From positions 167,426-231,425 of the forward strand of contig JAKLGL010000001.1 of the NCBI GenBank assembly GCA_022710645.1: a DNA stretch of 64,000 nt, given 5' to 3'. The stretch is from Patescibacteria group bacterium (GTDB lineage Bacteria; Patescibacteriota; Patescibacteriia; Magasanikbacterales; GWA2-37-8). Of the stretch, positions 20,598 to 36,415 are shown one piece after another. Position numbers and translations under genes: made by a program. Position 1 is the stretch's first letter; each line of letters starts with the position of its first letter. The notes under the pieces were generated by a model, which was not told the DNA's origin, searched no databases, and saw nothing but the letters and a program-made list of their open reading frames with translations.

Positions 20598-20899
20598 AAT
20601 TAAAAGTCTATAAAGTTAAAAAGTCTTTAAAGTCTACAAAGTCACGACTTGATGGACGTTATAGACTTTATGGACTTTTGACTTAAATATTATACCATAT
20701 TTTAATGTCAAAAACCACTAGGGTTGAAAAAGTTGTTAAAATAAGATAAAATTCCAATGGTTAAACTCTAAATCCTAAGCCCTAAATTCTAAACAATATC
20801 CAATATTTAATATTCAATATCAAAAAATTTGAAATTTGAAATTCAATATTGTTTAGAGATTAGAAATTAGAGCTTAGAATTTAAATCATACTCTAAAAT
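20598..20899. repeat. composite intergenic repeat region: AAGTCTATAAAGT-family units (20602-20690) plus a long AT-rich palindrome (20750-20899)
   Basis: ctaaacaatatccaatatttaatattcaatatcaaaaaatttgaaatttgaaattcaatattgtttagag is a near-perfect palindrome; 20611-20690 is homologous to 36268-36345. Confidence 0.75.
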
Positions 20900-23070: not shown

Positions 23071-23192
23071 TAGTCTTTCTTGGCTAATATAAGCCAAAAC
23101 AAAATTTAAAAAACCGCCAAAAAGGCGGTTTTTTACTTTATAAAAAGACTTTATGGACTTTATAAACTTTATGGACTTTTCAGACTTTCACC

Positions 23193-24204: not shown

Positions 24205-24747
24205 TTGTTATCATTTGAAAAAAGTGCTATAATATGGAAAAAGAAAAATGTGGCCATAACTCCGGAAAAACAACTTCTAAACATGGAAGATAACCAGGCA
24301 GAACAAGCCGGAGATTTTGTCGTAAAAGAAAATAAAGAATCGGCAGAAAGCAAAAAAGAGACTCTTTCTCCCAAAAAAGAAAATCAATCTAAGCCAGAAA
24401 CGGAAAAAAAGCCTTTTTTCAAAAAACCTCGCATTGTTTCCGTGGCAGTGCCCAAATTACGCGACGCAACAACGGTCAGGGTGGAAAAAATCATGGAAGA
24501 GGGTTTGCGCGAAGCTTATGAAAAGATGTCCCCCATCGCCAAACAAGAATTCAAAATCAAGGGCGAAGAAACAGCGGAAAAAATCGGCCAACTGCTCAAA
24601 AAAACTCATGTAAAAGTCAGGAAAATTTTCACTTTGATTTTTGAATGGCTCAAGATGATACCCGGGGTTAATTATTTTTTTCTGGAACAAGAAGCCAAAA
24701 TCAAAGCTGATCGCATACTAGCTTTAAAAAATCATCAAAAAGAATAA
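24205..24747 (+). CDS. hypothetical K/E-rich protein (start may be at 24283)
   Basis: ORF immediately upstream of, and co-oriented with, the ATPase gene (3-nt gap). Confidence 0.5.
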   Translation: MLSFEKSAIIWKKKNVAITPEKQLLNMEDNQAEQAGDFVVKENKESAESKKETLSPKKENQSKPETEKKPFFKKPRIVSVAVPKLRDATTVRVEKIMEEGLREAYEKMSPIAKQEFKIKGEETAEKIGQLLKKTHVKVRKIFTLIFEWLKMIPGVNYFFLEQEAKIKADRILALKNHQKE

Positions 24748-24749
24748 CT

Positions 24750-27308
24750 ATGTCTTTGTTGGGAATTTTTGAAATTAATCTAAGTCTTGATATATTGACA
24801 TCTTTAGGGTTTCCGCCCGAGACTCAAACCGTAGTGTTCAGCGCCGCGCTTATTTTGGTATGCTTGATATTAATGGTCAAAATTTTACGCTTGGTGATGC
24901 ATGAAAAAAATCGTCGCGGGAAAGCTTTTCATAAAACCGTATTTTTGATAAAAGTCCCAAAAGAAAAAAAAGGTGATAAGCAAGAAAGTTTTCAAGAAGA
25001 AAACATAAATCAAATTCGCGAACAAATAGGTACGGCGGAAACTTTATTCTCCAACATCGCCGGCTTGCGTCCGCAAAAAGGTTTTGGGGCTTGGTTGTCC
25101 GGTCGAAACGATAATTTATCTTTTGAAATTGTCGTTAAAGACGGATCTATTTCTTTTTATGTAGCAGTCCCGGCCAAACTTCGCAGTTTGGCGGAACAAC
25201 AAATACACGCTCAATATCCCAATGCCGAAATCAGCGAAGAACCTGATTACAATATTTTCAAGCCGCAAAGTCATATTGTCGGCGCTTATCTCACTTTTAA
25301 AGAAAAATCTTTTTTTCCTTTTAAAACCTACAAACATCTGGAAAGCGATCCTTTGCCGGCATTATTAAACCCTCTTTCAAAATTGGAAAATGATGAAGGC
25401 GCGCTTATCCAATATATAGTCAGACCGGCAGCAAGCAACTGGCGCAAATCCGGAGTTAGAATAGTGCGAGAAATAAAGGAAGGCAAAAAATTCGAATCTG
25501 TTTTGAAAAATTCCGGTTTTAGCAATGCCGCCGCTTCTTGGACTAAAATTATTTTTTCCAACAATAAAAAAGATACTTTGAATCCCAAAGAACCTTACCA
25601 CCTTACTCAGATGGAAGAAGAAATGGTAAAAGGAATGGAAGAAAAAATGAGTCGCGGCGGATTGGAAATCACTGTGCGTTTGGTCAGTTCGGCAAATTCA
25701 CGCGAAAAAGCTAGGTTGAATCTGGATAATATTATCAACGCGTTTTCTCTTTATAATATTTATCGTTACGGAAATTCTTTTTCTGCGCTTATTCCTCGTC
25801 GACCCAATCGTTTGATTCAAGATTCTATCTATCGCGCTTTCAATGAAAAATTTTCTCGAGTCGCTTCCACTGAAGAAATGGCTTCTTTTTGGCATTTACC
25901 TCTCCCCTCCACCGAGACGCCTCATATCAATTGGTTGGGAGCCCGCAAAGCGCCGCCACCGCTTAATATGCCAAACGAGGGTATTGTTTTGGGTCGTTGT
26001 GTTTATCGCGGAGAAGAAACAACTGTCAGGATGAAGCGAGCCGATAGACGACGTCATCTTTACACTATCGGTAAATCCGGCGTTGGTAAATCCGTATTCA
26101 TTCAAAACTTAGCCGTTCAAGACGTGCTTAACGGCGAAGGTGTTTGCGTTATAGATCCGCACGGTGATTTTGCCGAATATGTGCTGCAACATGTTCCCAA
26201 AGAACGCGCCGAAGATGTTATTTATTTCAATCCTTCAGATACCGAACGACCCATAGGTCTCAACATGCTTGAAGTTAAAACCGAAGATCAAAAAGATTTT
26301 GCTTGCCAAGAAATGATTTCCATTTTTTATAAAATGGTTACCGATCCGTCCATGATCGGTCCGATGTTTGAACACAACATGAGAAATGTCATGTTAACCT
26401 TAATGTCAGATGATGTTATGCCGGGAACGATAGCTGAGATTCCGCGTATGTTCACGGACGATGAATTTGTAGAAACTTGGAAGAAAAAATTAAAAGACCC
26501 GGTAGTCATGGCTTTTTGGGAAAAAGAAATGGCCAAAACTTCAGATTTTCACAAATCGGAAATGCTCGGATATCTCATTTCCAAAGTCGGTCGTTTTGTA
26601 GAAAACGCCATGATCAGAAATATTATCGGTCAATCGCATTCCGGATTTAATTTTCGCGAAATCATGGATAACAAAAAAATATTGATAGTAAATTTGGCCA
26701 AAGGATTAGTCGGAGAGATAAACTCCAATTTACTCGGTATGATCATTGTTTCCAAGTTACAAATGGCCGCCATGGAACGAGCATCTTTATCAGAAGAAAA
26801 ACGCCATGATTTTTATTTGTATATTGACGAGTTTCAAAATTTCATTACCGATTCCATAGCCACCATTCTTTCCGAAGCTCGCAAATATCGCTTAAATTTG
26901 ATAGTCGCCAACCAATATATGAAACAATTGGAAGACAATAAAGGCAAAACCGCGGTGCGAGATGCCATCTTGGGAAATGCCGGCACTATCGCCTCTTTTC
27001 GTATCGGTATAGAAGATGCAGAAATACTACAAAAAGAATTTGCGCCCGTATTTTCAGCTTATGATTTGGTCAATGTAGAACAATACACCGCTTATGTGAA
27101 ATTGCTTATTGACAATACCGCCGCCAAACCGTTTAATATGTATACTCTACCGCCTCAACCAGGTAACAAAGAAATGGCGGCCGCTATCAAAGAACTCTCT
27201 CGTTTGAAATACGGACGACCCAGAGAAATAGTCGAAGCGGAAATTTTGGAAAGATCGGCGTTAGGCTCTATCATGACCGGCACTCAACCGACCGAACCGA
27301 GTTTATAA
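24750..27308 (+). CDS. membrane-anchored FtsK/HerA-superfamily P-loop ATPase (VirB4/VirD4/TraG-like, AAA_10/DUF87-type) with a large unrecognised N-terminal domain
   Basis: N-terminal TM (AALILVCLILMVKIL); ~400-aa N-domain shared with ORF 34753-36099; Walker A YTIGKSGVGKS; VCVIDPHGDF; NPSD...P.GLN; Walker B FYLYIDEFQNF; LIVANQYMKQL (Q..QL motif typical of conjugative coupling / HerA ATPases). Confidence 0.85.
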   Translation: MSLLGIFEINLSLDILTSLGFPPETQTVVFSAALILVCLILMVKILRLVMHEKNRRGKAFHKTVFLIKVPKEKKGDKQESFQEENINQIREQIGTAETLFSNIAGLRPQKGFGAWLSGRNDNLSFEIVVKDGSISFYVAVPAKLRSLAEQQIHAQYPNAEISEEPDYNIFKPQSHIVGAYLTFKEKSFFPFKTYKHLESDPLPALLNPLSKLENDEGALIQYIVRPAASNWRKSGVRIVREIKEGKKFESVLKNSGFSNAAASWTKIIFSNNKKDTLNPKEPYHLTQMEEEMVKGMEEKMSRGGLEITVRLVSSANSREKARLNLDNIINAFSLYNIYRYGNSFSALIPRRPNRLIQDSIYRAFNEKFSRVASTEEMASFWHLPLPSTETPHINWLGARKAPPPLNMPNEGIVLGRCVYRGEETTVRMKRADRRRHLYTIGKSGVGKSVFIQNLAVQDVLNGEGVCVIDPHGDFAEYVLQHVPKERAEDVIYFNPSDTERPIGLNMLEVKTEDQKDFACQEMISIFYKMVTDPSMIGPMFEHNMRNVMLTLMSDDVMPGTIAEIPRMFTDDEFVETWKKKLKDPVVMAFWEKEMAKTSDFHKSEMLGYLISKVGRFVENAMIRNIIGQSHSGFNFREIMDNKKILIVNLAKGLVGEINSNLLGMIIVSKLQMAAMERASLSEEKRHDFYLYIDEFQNFITDSIATILSEARKYRLNLIVANQYMKQLEDNKGKTAVRDAILGNAGTIASFRIGIEDAEILQKEFAPVFSAYDLVNVEQYTAYVKLLIDNTAAKPFNMYTLPPQPGNKEMAAAIKELSRLKYGRPREIVEAEILERSALGSIMTGTQPTEPSL

Positions 27309-27360: not shown

Positions 27361-28905
27361 ATGTCAACTTTATATCGAAAATACAGACCGCAAAAGTTTT
27401 CCGATTTGGTAGAACAAAAACATTTGGTCAAAACTTTGCAAAATGAAATCAGCGGAGACAAAATAGCTCATGCTTATCTTTTTTCCGGACCGCGAGGAGT
27501 TGGTAAAACAACTCTGGCCCGACTTTTTGCCAAAGCTGTCAACTGTCAAAATCGCAAACATGGAGAATATGAACCTTGTGATGAATGTTCTTCTTGCCTT
27601 GAAATATCCGCTTCTCGCAATATTGACGTGATAGAAATTGACGCAGCTTCTCATACCGGCGTGGACAATGTTCGAGAAAACATTATTGAAAACGCTCAAT
27701 TTAAGCCGACTAAATCAAAATACAAAGTTTTTATTATCGACGAAGTGCACATGCTTTCCACTTCAGCTTTTAACGCTTTATTAAAAACTTTAGAAGAACC
27801 TCCGTCTCATGCCGTTTTTATCTTAGCCACCACCGAACCGCAAAAAATACCGGCCACCATCATTTCTCGCTGCCAAAGATTTAATTTTAAAAAAATAAAT
27901 TTTGATTCTTTGATTAAACGTCTTGAAGATATAGCTGAACAGGAAAAAATCAAAGTTGACGAAAGTGTATTACGTAAAGTCGCCGCCAAAAGCGACGGCT
28001 GCATGCGTGATGCCGAAAGTTTACTCGGACAAATCTTTTCTTCCGGAAAAAACAAAATAAGTAAAGAAGAAGCCGACAGTGTTCTCCCGACTTCACAAAT
28101 GGAATCGGTAGCTGATTTTGCCGAGGCTGTAATAGATAAAAATCTCGTTGCCGCTTTGCAAATTATAGATGATTTGGCGCAAAACGGAATATCTTTGACA
28201 CAATTTCACGAGGATCTGCTTTCTTTTTGGCGATTACTTTTGATGATAAAAAACAAAATAAAAACATCGACTATTTACGAATTTAGCGATGAAACGATAA
28301 AAAACATGGAAACAATGGCGCAAAAATTAACAGAAAAAGAAATAATGTCTTTTGCAGATTCAACTTTAAAAAGATTAATTTTTGCTAAAAATTGTCCTTT
28401 GGCTCAACTTCCATTAGAGCTTTTGGCGGTAGAACTCATAGAAGACGAATCAGAAAATGAAACTACAAAGGAACCGCAAAAACCGAAAAAAAATATCGTT
28501 GAAATAAAAAAAGAAGAAGAAACAAAAAAACCGGAGGTCAAAAAAACAAGTGAAGAAACTCCGATAGTTCCGCCTAAAAAAACTTCCGCTAAAATCGTAT
28601 CGTTTGAAGAGATAAATGAAAAGTGGCCGGAAGTAATGAGCAAAATAAACGAGAAAAGTCCTTCACTTTTATTTGTCGTTAAAATGGCGGATTTGATAGA
28701 AGCTTCAGATAATATTTTGACTTTATCGTTGCCTTACGATTTTCACCAGAAGAAACTCAAAGATTCCAAAAATAACGAAATTTTACAAACGATATTTAAA
28801 GAAATTTTCGGCGAAACACTTCAACTTAATTGCTCAGTTGCAGAAAAACCCTTAAATACTGAAATAAACGACCTCGCTGCTGATTTTGGCGGACAAGTGA
28901 TTTAA
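27361..28905 (+). CDS. dnaX: DNA polymerase III subunit gamma/tau
   Basis: YRKYRPQKFSDLVEQKHLVKTLQN...AHAYLFSGPRGVGKTTLARLFAKAVNC, Zn module CDECSSC, DEVHMLS. Confidence 0.9.
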   Translation: MSTLYRKYRPQKFSDLVEQKHLVKTLQNEISGDKIAHAYLFSGPRGVGKTTLARLFAKAVNCQNRKHGEYEPCDECSSCLEISASRNIDVIEIDAASHTGVDNVRENIIENAQFKPTKSKYKVFIIDEVHMLSTSAFNALLKTLEEPPSHAVFILATTEPQKIPATIISRCQRFNFKKINFDSLIKRLEDIAEQEKIKVDESVLRKVAAKSDGCMRDAESLLGQIFSSGKNKISKEEADSVLPTSQMESVADFAEAVIDKNLVAALQIIDDLAQNGISLTQFHEDLLSFWRLLLMIKNKIKTSTIYEFSDETIKNMETMAQKLTEKEIMSFADSTLKRLIFAKNCPLAQLPLELLAVELIEDESENETTKEPQKPKKNIVEIKKEEETKKPEVKKTSEETPIVPPKKTSAKIVSFEEINEKWPEVMSKINEKSPSLLFVVKMADLIEASDNILTLSLPYDFHQKKLKDSKNNEILQTIFKEIFGETLQLNCSVAEKPLNTEINDLAADFGGQVI

Positions 28906-28921
28906 GTCAAAAAAAGTCCAT

Positions 28922-28985
28922 AAAGTTTACCCCGTTAAATCCCCATGGGGTCTGCCTTTGGCAGAATTTAACAGGGGTAAATAAA
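28922..28985. repeat. nested triple palindrome (outer tttaccccgttaaat/atttaacaggggtaaa enclosing ccccatgggg and tctgcctttggcaga), flanked by AAGTCYATAAAGT repeat units
   Basis: three palindromes visible directly; intergenic between dnaX and the next gene. Confidence 0.6.
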
Positions 28986-28996
28986 GTCTATAAAGT

Positions 28997-29824
28997 GTGA
29001 AAAAATACCTTTTGTTTTTATTATTCCTTCTCCCCTGCCCGGTTTTGGCAGTTGACGAACAAAAAGAAATCGTCAATTTAAACGTACCTTTTATCAGTGA
29101 AGCGCCAGAAAAAAAGTGGTCCGGTCCTTGGATAAATGCTTGTGAAGAAGCTAGCGTTGCAATGGTAGATAATTTTTATTTGGGAAAAAATAAAGTTGCA
29201 ATCAAAGAAGCATCCAATCTGATGAATCAACTTTTCGCTTGGCAAAATAAATTATTTAAAAGCAATGCGAATAGTAATGCAACTCGCACTCTCCAAATGA
29301 TAATTGCTAATAATATGACTTTTAAAGGCGAGATTATCCGCAATCCGACTCTTGATCAAATCAAAGACGAATTGCGCGCCGGACGACCAGTGATTTCTCT
29401 GCATTACGGATTTGATCTCAAAAATCCCGACTTGGTTTTCCGTCGCGACGGTTCGGCTTATCATATGTTTGTGATAAAAGGATTTGACGAAAACACAGAG
29501 GAATTTATCGTCCATGACAATGGCTCTCATAAGAACGGGGTTGACTTTCGCTACAAATATGATATTTTGATGTCCAGCTTGCGAGATTACAATCACAAAA
29601 CAAACAAAACCGAGAAACCCGGCACAGTGATATTTACCAAACAATATTTCACTGCCAAAGTAGCAGGTACGCCGGCCATATACCTCATTGAAGACGGAAT
29701 TAAAAAACCTTTTCCGCATAGCGGAATTTTCAAAGATATGGGGTGGAAATTTTCGCAAGTCCGCAAAGTTTCCAAAGAATTTTTGGAAAACTTACCAAAC
29801 GCCGAATTGGCGTATAAACAATAA
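28997..29824 (+). CDS. secreted C39-like (papain-fold) cysteine peptidase domain protein
   Basis: signal peptide MKKYLLFLLFLLPCPVLA; catalytic-type Cys in WINACEEASVAMV and His in AYHMFVIKGFD..FIVHDNG. Confidence 0.6.
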   Translation: MKKYLLFLLFLLPCPVLAVDEQKEIVNLNVPFISEAPEKKWSGPWINACEEASVAMVDNFYLGKNKVAIKEASNLMNQLFAWQNKLFKSNANSNATRTLQMIIANNMTFKGEIIRNPTLDQIKDELRAGRPVISLHYGFDLKNPDLVFRRDGSAYHMFVIKGFDENTEEFIVHDNGSHKNGVDFRYKYDILMSSLRDYNHKTNKTEKPGTVIFTKQYFTAKVAGTPAIYLIEDGIKKPFPHSGIFKDMGWKFSQVRKVSKEFLENLPNAELAYKQ

Positions 29825-34752: not shown

Positions 34753-36099
34753 TTAAGCGTAAGGCAATTCTTCCGGTTCAGGAGGTTTTTCTTGTTTTTG
34801 TTCTTCTTTATATTTCAATCCTCCTTCAAAAACCTCTACTGGTAAATTGGTCGGCGGTTCACTGCGTTTTCCGCCGGCTTTTTGGATAAGCGGGGCTTTT
34901 ACCGTCGGCATCGGGAAATGCCACAAAGTCGCCAACTCTTCTATATTCAACATATATGGATCGCTTTTTAATTTCATTTTTCTTTTTTTGTAGGCTGAAA
35001 CCGCATCATTTCCCCCGATAGATGAAGCCTTGAAACCGTTTTGGTTGGCAATATAAAACTGATTGATAGAACCTATAAAACCATTGATACATTTTTTGGG
35101 ATTGAACACTTCTTTGCGAGCGCTATAGAGTAAACGCAAACGAGATTTAAAACCAAGTTTAGAAATTTTATTTTCAATTCCGGAAATGGCATTTTTGACA
35201 CCCGGCGCCACTTCTCCTTTACTCTCTTCTTTTTTCTTTTCACTGCCGCTAAAATCATGAGTCCAAATTTGCCAAATTAATTTTAAAATACCTTCAGTAA
35301 AATTAGCAACGTGTTGAGCGGCATTCGGTTTGGGCGGAGCCTTTTTACCGCTAGCCAAATTTTTTACCAAATCTATCCCCTTTTTCTTCCAACTATTGTC
35401 CGCCGGTTCTACTATGAGTTGCATCCATAAATTTTCACCAGCGCCGATACGCGTAAAATTTTCCAAAATTGCCGCCATCGGATCAATAAACGGCGCATCT
35501 TTGTATAAACTATGTTCAAACTCCGTATAAGTACGTATCGGATAAGAATCATCTTCCGCCATATCAAATTCCACACCCGCCACTTCATAACGATTATCCG
35601 GAAAATTATCCGGTAAATTCGTGATATAATCTTCAACTTCGGTTATTTCCGCTTCCGGGTATTGAGCATAGATAGCAGCTTCAACCAGATCTCGAAACTC
35701 ACTCGGCATTCTCACCAGAAATTGAATATACCCCTCCAAACTGATAATTTCTAAACTGAAATTTTTTTGCTTTTTACCTAACCAATATTTATCATAAAGG
35801 CCTATTTTGGAATATATACCGCTAAAATGTGTAAAAATTTGTTCCACTGCGCGAGGAGATTGGATAACTGCCGCCGGAATATCCACAGCCAAAACAGACC
35901 AAGAGCAAGTACTGTCAAATCTTTTTTGTTTCAAAGACAAAACTTCTCCCAAACCTTTATGAAAAAGGGGGGTTATCGGCAACCACCAAAGAAATACAAA
36001 AGCCAACCGCAATTGTTCGGTCAAACTCATTTCCATAAATGTCTGCCAAAAACCCAAACTTATGGAAAAATTCCACGGTGTTTCAATAACCGGAACCAT
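34753..36099 (-). CDS. membrane-anchored protein paralogous to the N-terminal domain of the 852-aa ATPase (no ATPase module)
   Basis: aligns with 24750-26070: IYAQYPEAEITEVEDY vs IHAQYPNAEISEEPDY; LWMQLIVEPADNSWKKKG vs ALIQYIVRPAASNWRKSG; WHFPMPTVKAP vs WHLPLPSTETP; ATG at 36099, or TTG at 36108. Confidence 0.7.
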   Translation of the reverse strand: MVPVIETPWNFSISLGFWQTFMEMSLTEQLRLAFVFLWWLPITPLFHKGLGEVLSLKQKRFDSTCSWSVLAVDIPAAVIQSPRAVEQIFTHFSGIYSKIGLYDKYWLGKKQKNFSLEIISLEGYIQFLVRMPSEFRDLVEAAIYAQYPEAEITEVEDYITNLPDNFPDNRYEVAGVEFDMAEDDSYPIRTYTEFEHSLYKDAPFIDPMAAILENFTRIGAGENLWMQLIVEPADNSWKKKGIDLVKNLASGKKAPPKPNAAQHVANFTEGILKLIWQIWTHDFSGSEKKKEESKGEVAPGVKNAISGIENKISKLGFKSRLRLLYSARKEVFNPKKCINGFIGSINQFYIANQNGFKASSIGGNDAVSAYKKRKMKLKSDPYMLNIEELATLWHFPMPTVKAPLIQKAGGKRSEPPTNLPVEVFEGGLKYKEEQKQEKPPEPEELPYA

Positions 36100-36100
36100 A

Positions 36101-36259
36101 TTAATCAATTAAACGATAAATCAAACCGTATACGATTATCACCGTAACCCCGGTCCACCACCATCCGGATAAACCTGAGAAGTATCCGGCAATGTAAGCC
36201 AAAAGGCAACATATTGTGGCTAAAAAAGAAACCAGGTGTTTTACCGTATTATCAGACAT
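36101..36259 (-). CDS. small hydrophobic protein (~51 aa), probably co-transcribed with 34753-36099
   Basis: MSDNTVKHLVSFLATICCLLAYIAGYFSGLSGWWWTGVTVIIVYGLIYRLID; its stop abuts the downstream start; not in the ORF track because shorter than 60 aa. Confidence 0.4.
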   Translation of the reverse strand: MSDNTVKHLVSFLATICCLLAYIAGYFSGLSGWWWTGVTVIIVYGLIYRLID

Positions 36260-36261
36260 AA

Positions 36262-36345
36262 AAATTAAGTCTTTAAAGTCTTTAAAGTCACAAAGTCTAT
36301 CAAGCCTCGTAGTCTTTACAGACTTTATGGACTTTTGACTTTTTT
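36262..36345. repeat. AAGTCTTTAAAGTC / AGACTTTATGGACTTTTGACTT intergenic repeat, homologous to 20611-20690
   Basis: about 80 nt similar to the region upstream of pilM. Confidence 0.7.
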
Positions 36346-36415
36346 ATTATATCACAACTTCTCTCTAAAATAAAATCCCGTCCGCCTTAGGCGGACGGGA
36401 TTATTTATTGGATAA

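Follow-up and report, generated by a model that had tools for sequence, protein, structure and literature searches.

Among described systems, the closest counterparts of the locus presented here are the VirB4 ATPases, signature enzymes of type IV secretion systems (T4SSs), their small membrane partner VirB3, and the free VirB4-like N-terminal proteins of the TrsD type. In the VirB4 complex, VirB3, which has two transmembrane (TM) helices, wraps the N-terminal domain (NTD) of VirB4, and the VirB4central-VirB4outside dimer interface is formed by the NTD alone (Mace et al. 2022, PMC9259494). The T4SS clusters of Patescibacteria encode a small membrane protein (VirB3/PrgI), followed by an NTD-like TrsD homologue and then the ATPase (Quinonero-Coronel et al. 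2025, PMC12102498). The same survey reported thousands of 'T4CP-like' ATPase genes in Patescibacteria that lie away from T4SS clusters, and ATPases of the fused type described below appear in it as 'T4CP' (PMC12102498).

Within the 64-kb window (the whole stretch of DNA analyzed here, from a Patescibacteria group bacterium), a gene on the minus strand (nt. 34753–36099; ATG start) encodes a stand-alone protein of 448 a.a. plus stop codon, with an in-frame TTG at nt. 36108. Residues 30–50 (nt. 35950–36012, minus strand) form the hydrophobic core, followed by K/R residues, of a long N-terminal helix (residues 26–64 in the model) and constitute the predicted membrane anchor. Further along the same strand, residues 65–395 (nt. 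34915–35907) make up an alpha/beta body that, in the predicted model, has a fold like that of the VirB4/TrwK NTD, residues 393–420 (nt. 34840–34923) carry the conserved linker motif WHFPxPxVKxPLxQKxxxKRxEPPxNLP, at many positions of which 37 orthologs show no variation, and the extreme C-terminal tail PPEPEELPYA (residues 439–448, nt. 34756–34785) matches the terminal PPxNLP[FYL]x of the split-type homologues discussed below.

The sequence-only reading had aligned this protein with an 852-a.a. ATPase encoded elsewhere in the window and had assigned it an N-terminal TM segment of its own and no ATPase module; all three points held up. Using BLASTP with compositional matrix adjustment, residues 49–437 aligned with residues 60–423 of the ATPase (26% identity over 402 columns, E = 2e-34), a similarity far beyond chance that survives composition correction and by which the stand-alone protein is, at the sequence level, a true paralog of that part of the ATPase. 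The C-terminal WHxPxP...PPxNxP segment, also pointed out beforehand as common to both proteins, reads WHFPMPTVKAPLIQKAGGKRSEPPTNLP in the paralog and WHLPLPSTETPHINWLGARKAPPPLNMP in the ATPase. The hydrophobic helix is present, and a Walker A motif was found neither in the stand-alone protein nor in any of its orthologs (37/37), that of the ATPase being GKSGVGKS at residues 441–448. Based on the positive-inside rule, and because no further TM segment precedes the ATPase in the fused paralog, the stand-alone protein is probably membrane-anchored with the rest of the chain in the cytoplasm.

The stand-alone protein has 2845 homologues. At 50% identity, 1957 clusters were obtained, and the best 150 of these are nearly all 420–600 a.a. 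long. We assign it by sequence to the Pfam family DUF8128 (PF26449): homologues listed at 45–96% identity carry precomputed PF26449 entries (all but P0109, which is without a precomputed Pfam entry), the fused ATPase homologues likewise carry PF26449, and two orthologs (KKQ41006.1 and KKU26138.1) bear the UniRef name 'DUF8128 domain-containing protein'. The protein itself showed no match in NCBIfam or in a Pfam set that lacked the PF26449 model, and we found no papers in the literature on 'PF26449' or 'DUF8128'.

DUF8128 comes in three arrangements: joined to the ATPase in one protein, encoded by a gene of its own immediately before a separate ATPase gene, and, as for the 448-a.a. protein, encoded alone with no ATPase gene adjoining. 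The earlier proposal that the N-domain is an independent unit, present in a fusion at one locus and free at the other, is thereby borne out and narrowed. In four distant lineages (L085, L087, L088, and L093), the gene right behind a free DUF8128 gene encodes an ATPase at least 458–723 a.a. long, and in L091 the first 93 codons of such a gene are present there. The split-type ATPase is 45–46% identical to residues 413–849 of the fused protein, and the point of the split falls at the WHxP...PPxNLP linker. The free copies of these split-type loci share 32–42% identity with the free copy of the window, as opposed to only 23–26% with the fused N-domain, so that by sequence the latter free copy is the ortholog of the N-half gene of the two-gene form. 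Since free DUF8128 genes in other Patescibacteria stand directly before an ATPase gene, the window copy can be read as the orphaned N-half of a split motor (hereafter, the orphan).

The linker and tail repay a closer comparison between these forms. The PPxNLP motif is repeated at the extreme C-terminus in four of six split-type proteins (L085, L087, L091, and L093) and is single and terminal in the other two (L088 and L092); in the orphans, the second, terminal motif is degenerate and ends in LPYA. The linker is ordered in the model of the fused protein (pLDDT 81–88) and disordered in that of the free protein (41–55), and the isolated orphan model is of low confidence from about residue 401 onward.

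Directly upstream of the orphan, on the same strand, lies a gene of 52 a.a. plus stop (nt. 36101–36259, minus strand; MSDNTVKHLVSFLATICCLLAYIAGYFSGLSGWWWTGVTVIIVYGLIYRLID), which encodes two hydrophobic helices with a GWWWT turn between them and whose stop codon is one base from the ATG of the orphan. It had been described as a 51-a.a. TM micro-protein abutting the paralog, and of this only the length required correction. With tblastn, 83 of 84 related, orphan-type loci showed it immediately upstream in the same orientation, and it is also present in L086. Across 30 orthologs, five residues (H8, G25, W33, W34, and Y44) do not vary, and comparison with the nearest orthologs gave a pN of 0.06–0.07 and a pS of about 0.8; by these measures, the micro-protein is a genuine gene under strong purifying selection. 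Several gene calls that we examined miss this conserved gene, which is worth adding to annotations. The micro-protein had no match in Pfam or NCBIfam, a profile search against PDB sequences was empty, and a relaxed Pfam scan of 30 members returned neither VirB3 (PF05101) nor PrgI (PF12666) at E ≤ 10. The only matches among these 30 were below threshold and to generic two-TM families (YgaP-like_TM in 14, TrbC/VirB2 in 5). As a separate observation, a Gly/His-rich segment occurs in both the micro-protein and a loop of DUF8128 in 9 loci, against about 4.4 expected, a suggestive figure that is uncorrected for phylogeny.

The fused paralog (nt. 24750–27308, plus strand, 852 a.a.) consists of an N-terminal TM helix (residues 23–53, nt. 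24816–24908), the DUF8128 domain (about residues 60–380, nt. 24927–25889), a WHLP...PPPLNMP linker (residues 381–411, nt. 25890–25982), and a VirB4/TrwB/HerA-type ATPase domain (residues 412–837, nt. 25983–27260, with Walker A at nt. 26070–26093), all on the plus strand. Its ATPase half exceeds the Pfam gathering scores of TrwB_AAD_bind, T4SS-DNA_transf, and TraG-D_C (PF10412, 39 bits against 20.5; PF02534, 32.4 against 20.1; PF12696, 28.6 against 22) and has TrwB as its best PDB sequence match. In structural comparison, the VirB4 C-terminal domain (CTD), DptH, and TrwB fall within 2 Z units of one another. As to its class, VirB4 or T4CP, sequence thus favours TrwB, while structure places all three close together. 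A small conserved ORF (nt. 24205–24747, plus strand) lies directly upstream; it spans 180 a.a. from a TTG, with the true start probably at an ATG near nt. 24283, has no family match, and shares 60% identity over its C-terminal 96 a.a. with its counterpart in locus L002. The neighborhood of the fused ATPase is conserved and of a housekeeping nature (dnaX, corA, and cysS). The distance between the fused ATPase and the orphan is 7.4 kb in the window and within about 5–8 kb in many Magasanikbacteria.

Repeats of the AAGTCTTTAAAGTC family had been placed before both paralog loci on their own strands, a statement that did not withstand inspection, and co-regulation argued from these repeats is not supported. 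The repeat is non-random (15 matches against 1.25 expected), and one copy, an imperfect palindrome of ~80 nt built of 9-nt AAAGTCnnn sub-repeats (nt. 36265–36345), does sit immediately ahead of the micro-protein gene, between it and the preceding gene. No copy directly precedes the ATPase operon; one at nt. 23140–23190 lies downstream of corA, about 1 kb from that operon, and corA, encoded on the opposite strand, stands between the two. Further copies are found beside unrelated genes, in the pilM/cysS intergenic region (nt. 20600–20685) and upstream of a C39-like peptidase gene (nt. 28905–28997). Because the spaced motif is absent from all 88 related loci (0 of 88), the repeat is specific to this genome, and we rejected it as a regulator common to the two loci.

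The predicted body of the orphan resembles, in three dimensions, the TrwK NTD (residues 15–400), taken from a solved VirB4 structure, and structure prediction, suggested earlier as a check on the N-domain, thus returned the fold of a VirB4 NTD. Searches with 37 DUF8128 members gave no match to the VirB4/TraC/TrsD families (CagE_TrbE_VirB, PF03135; TraC_F_IV, PF11130; virb4 profile) at E ≤ 5, nor did a profile search of PDB sequences return anything at E ≤ 10. The proposed link between DUF8128 and VirB4 is therefore structural, drawn from predicted models, with none given by sequence or profile methods.

Taken together, we favour, with somewhat better than even confidence, a reading in which the orphan is a non-catalytic, membrane-anchored docking or scaffold subunit of a VirB4-like/T4CP-like motor, with the micro-protein as its partner. 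DUF8128 would form the N-terminal half of VirB4-like/T4CP-like translocation ATPases, a family found throughout Patescibacteria and made either as one polypeptide or from two adjacent genes. In the two-gene form of the Magasanikbacteria, the adjacent ATPase gene would have been lost and the two-TM partner gained or kept. The micro-protein and the N-terminal helix may hold the NTD-like body at the inner membrane face, as VirB3 does for the VirB4 NTD, and the body may form a pair with an ATPase subunit by way of the latter's NTD, on the pattern of the VirB4central-VirB4outside interface, where only NTDs take part. The conserved, disordered PPxNLP tail would dock in trans on an ATPase domain, at the site to which the motif is covalently joined in the fused protein, making the orphan a scaffold or adaptor of a hexameric DNA/protein translocation motor. 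Of all this, the analysis shows that the two proteins are paralogs, that the genes are conserved and linked, which fold the models have, and that split and fused genes exist; the topology in the membrane, the contacts between proteins, the partner ATPase, and the substrate are inferences. The partner is most probably the fused paralog 7.4 kb away, which may nevertheless not be the partner because its docking site would already be taken in cis; one genome has two further 'T4CP' matches (table of PMC12102498).

An unlikely alternative is that the orphan acts as an extra, TrsD-like NTD subunit of the canonical Patescibacteria T4SS (the VirB3-TrsD-VirB4 cluster, located elsewhere in the genome) and not of a DUF8128-type ATPase. 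Its modelled fold class is the same as that of the VirB4 NTD, the clusters of Patescibacteria already use a free VirB4-NTD-like TrsD (PMC12102498), and such a VirB3-TrsD-VirB4 cluster is carried by Magasanikbacteria GW2011_GWA2_37_8. However, the genome (GCA_000992085.1) has its own TrsD (KKQ41281.1, PF11130) adjoining VirB4 (KKQ41280.1) in the table of PMC12102498, whereas its DUF8128 ortholog (KKQ41006.1), with secDF and unrelated genes as neighbors, was undetected by any T4SS profile in that survey and is absent from its T4SS table; DUF8128 members have no PF11130 match even at E ≤ 5. Because the same genome carries both, TrsD and DUF8128 represent distinct lineages, and the possibility that the stand-alone protein is simply the known Patescibacteria TrsD homologue was discarded, given this different TrsD beside VirB4 and the absence of KKQ41006.1 from the table. 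Moreover, the linker and tail motifs of the orphan are common specifically to DUF8128-type ATPases, with which its orthologs elsewhere are operonic.

Equally improbable, in our estimation, is that the orphan became independent of any ATPase after the loss of its partner, for instance as a membrane scaffold or regulator in which the micro-protein replaces the lost function. Such a course would fit the lack of an adjacent ATPase gene (0 in about 80 Magasanikbacteria loci), the tie of the micro-protein to the orphan form and its absence in the four loci with a full split operon (L085, L087, L088, and L093), and the faster evolution of the orphan, with an identity across the class of 45–55% compared to 72–78% for the fused ATPase. 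Set against this, linker positions K407, K411, E414, P415, P416, and L419 are invariant in the orphans (37 orthologs), which is hard to explain unless a conserved partner of the same kind persists.

The gene order of the locus also brings the Sec translocon into view, and the tight synteny with secDF is in itself an observation that suggests another possible association of the orphan. That the orphan and micro-protein are accessory subunits of SecDF, comparable to YajC, instead of partners of an ATPase, strikes us as quite unlikely. While secD-secF lie directly upstream in nearly all Magasanikbacteria loci with enough upstream DNA, and also in the distant lineages L086, L087, and L093, a strong terminator-like hairpin (nt. 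36374–36402, minus strand; a 13-bp stem that includes 9 G-C pairs and is followed by a run of T) downstream of secF divides the SecA-SecD-SecF genes from the micro-protein/DUF8128 unit, along with a spacer of ~150 nt. The interval between secF and DUF8128 is occupied in L087 and L093 by an unrelated sigma70_r4/HARE-HTH gene, and L085 is without secDF within 8 kb upstream (L088, with 2.7 kb of upstream DNA, says little). The fusion or operonic linkage of the domain to TrwB/VirB4-type ATPases is a much stronger functional link. Finally, the missing ATPase half and the AT-rich genome could point to a second ATPase copy in decay, or to a similarity that is a compositional artefact. This reading has a probability close to nil and is refuted by the composition-based E-value given above, intact orthologs in 270 species-level genomes, a frame unbroken at 443–495 a.a. 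in hundreds of lineages, dozens of invariant columns in the ortholog alignment, a conserved upstream partner gene under purifying selection, and the lack of anything ATPase-like downstream, where dus follows after 36 nt.

The analysis shows DUF8128 in fused, split, and orphaned form, the last with a dedicated and previously unannotated micro-protein partner, and the docking-subunit reading yields a testable model of assembly (NTD-NTD pairing, a docking PPxNLP tail, and a VirB3-like anchor). The predicted models would give DUF8128 a structural identity and indicate that one large, highly conserved subset of the 'T4CP-like' ATPases has a VirB4-type NTD, an arrangement that bears on the divergence of VirB4 and coupling proteins. 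A more far-reaching version, which we regard as rather doubtful, would place the DUF8128 ATPases midway in evolution between VirB4 and coupling proteins and make them an autonomous, chromosomally fixed housekeeping motor, heteromeric in Magasanikbacteria, where non-catalytic orphan NTDs would ring the catalytic fused subunits in the place of 'VirB4outside', with a new VirB3-like micro-protein as anchor, beside the Sec machinery. These ATPases would be ones now filed among the 'T4CP' copies, at about two per Patescibacteria genome.

Relative to VirB4 (TrwK of R388) and VirB3 (TrwM), DUF8128 is without sequence similarity and has an N-terminal TM helix of its own, and the orphan is not covalently followed by a VirB4-type P-loop CTD. 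The micro-protein resembles VirB3/PrgI in being small, with two predicted TM helices and a gene immediately upstream of a VirB4-NTD-like gene, but is half the size of VirB3 and has no VirB3/PrgI profile match. Unlike VirB4 systems, the window holds no nearby VirB6, VirB8, or VirB2 genes; VirB3 and pilin genes were likewise not seen among its housekeeping genes. With TrsD/TrsE (Staphylococcus plasmid pGO1, MPF-FATA), the orphan has in common that a free protein resembling the N-part of VirB4 is encoded separately from the ATPase. However, TrsD homologues match FATA_trsD and PF11130, which DUF8128 does not, and TrsD adjoins a canonical VirB4, whereas no ATPase gene adjoins that of the orphan, whose relatives are paired with ATPases of the T4CP-like kind (TrwB_AAD_bind/T4SS-DNA_transf).

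The fused paralog resembles the type IV coupling proteins (VirD4/TrwB/TraD), sharing family profiles above cut-off and an N-terminal membrane anchor. Classical T4CPs, whose N-terminus is short and has two TM segments, are not known to have a VirB4-NTD-like domain of ~350 a.a., as the fused paralog does. No relaxase, conjugation, or mobile-element genes were found in the 64-kb window, and the neighborhood is syntenic across the class. The resemblance to EccE of mycobacterial type VII secretion is a much weaker match with no sequence relation, from another secretion system and other phyla. Phages, on the other hand, encode full-length homologues of the fused DUF8128-ATPase, PHROG phrog_5156 (E = 1.1e-86 over 742 residues) and Bacillus phage G gp156 (E = 4e-45, 85% coverage), and gp156 adjoins gp155 (VirB4-like, P-loop_TraG/AAA_10) and gp153 (TrbL/VirB6-like); a free DUF8128 gene or micro-protein was not seen in phage G. 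The sequence-only reading had proposed a secretion, competence, or defence module. Nothing speaks for defence: PADLOC gave no match for the orphan, the micro-protein, or the ORF at nt. 24205–24747, and for the ATPase only generic P-loop matches (mad8, 1e-15; HerA, about 5e-4). Secretion is the part of that proposal we favour, because of the predicted VirB4 NTD fold, the arrangements with an ATPase, and the phage homologue standing beside VirB4- and VirB6-like genes.

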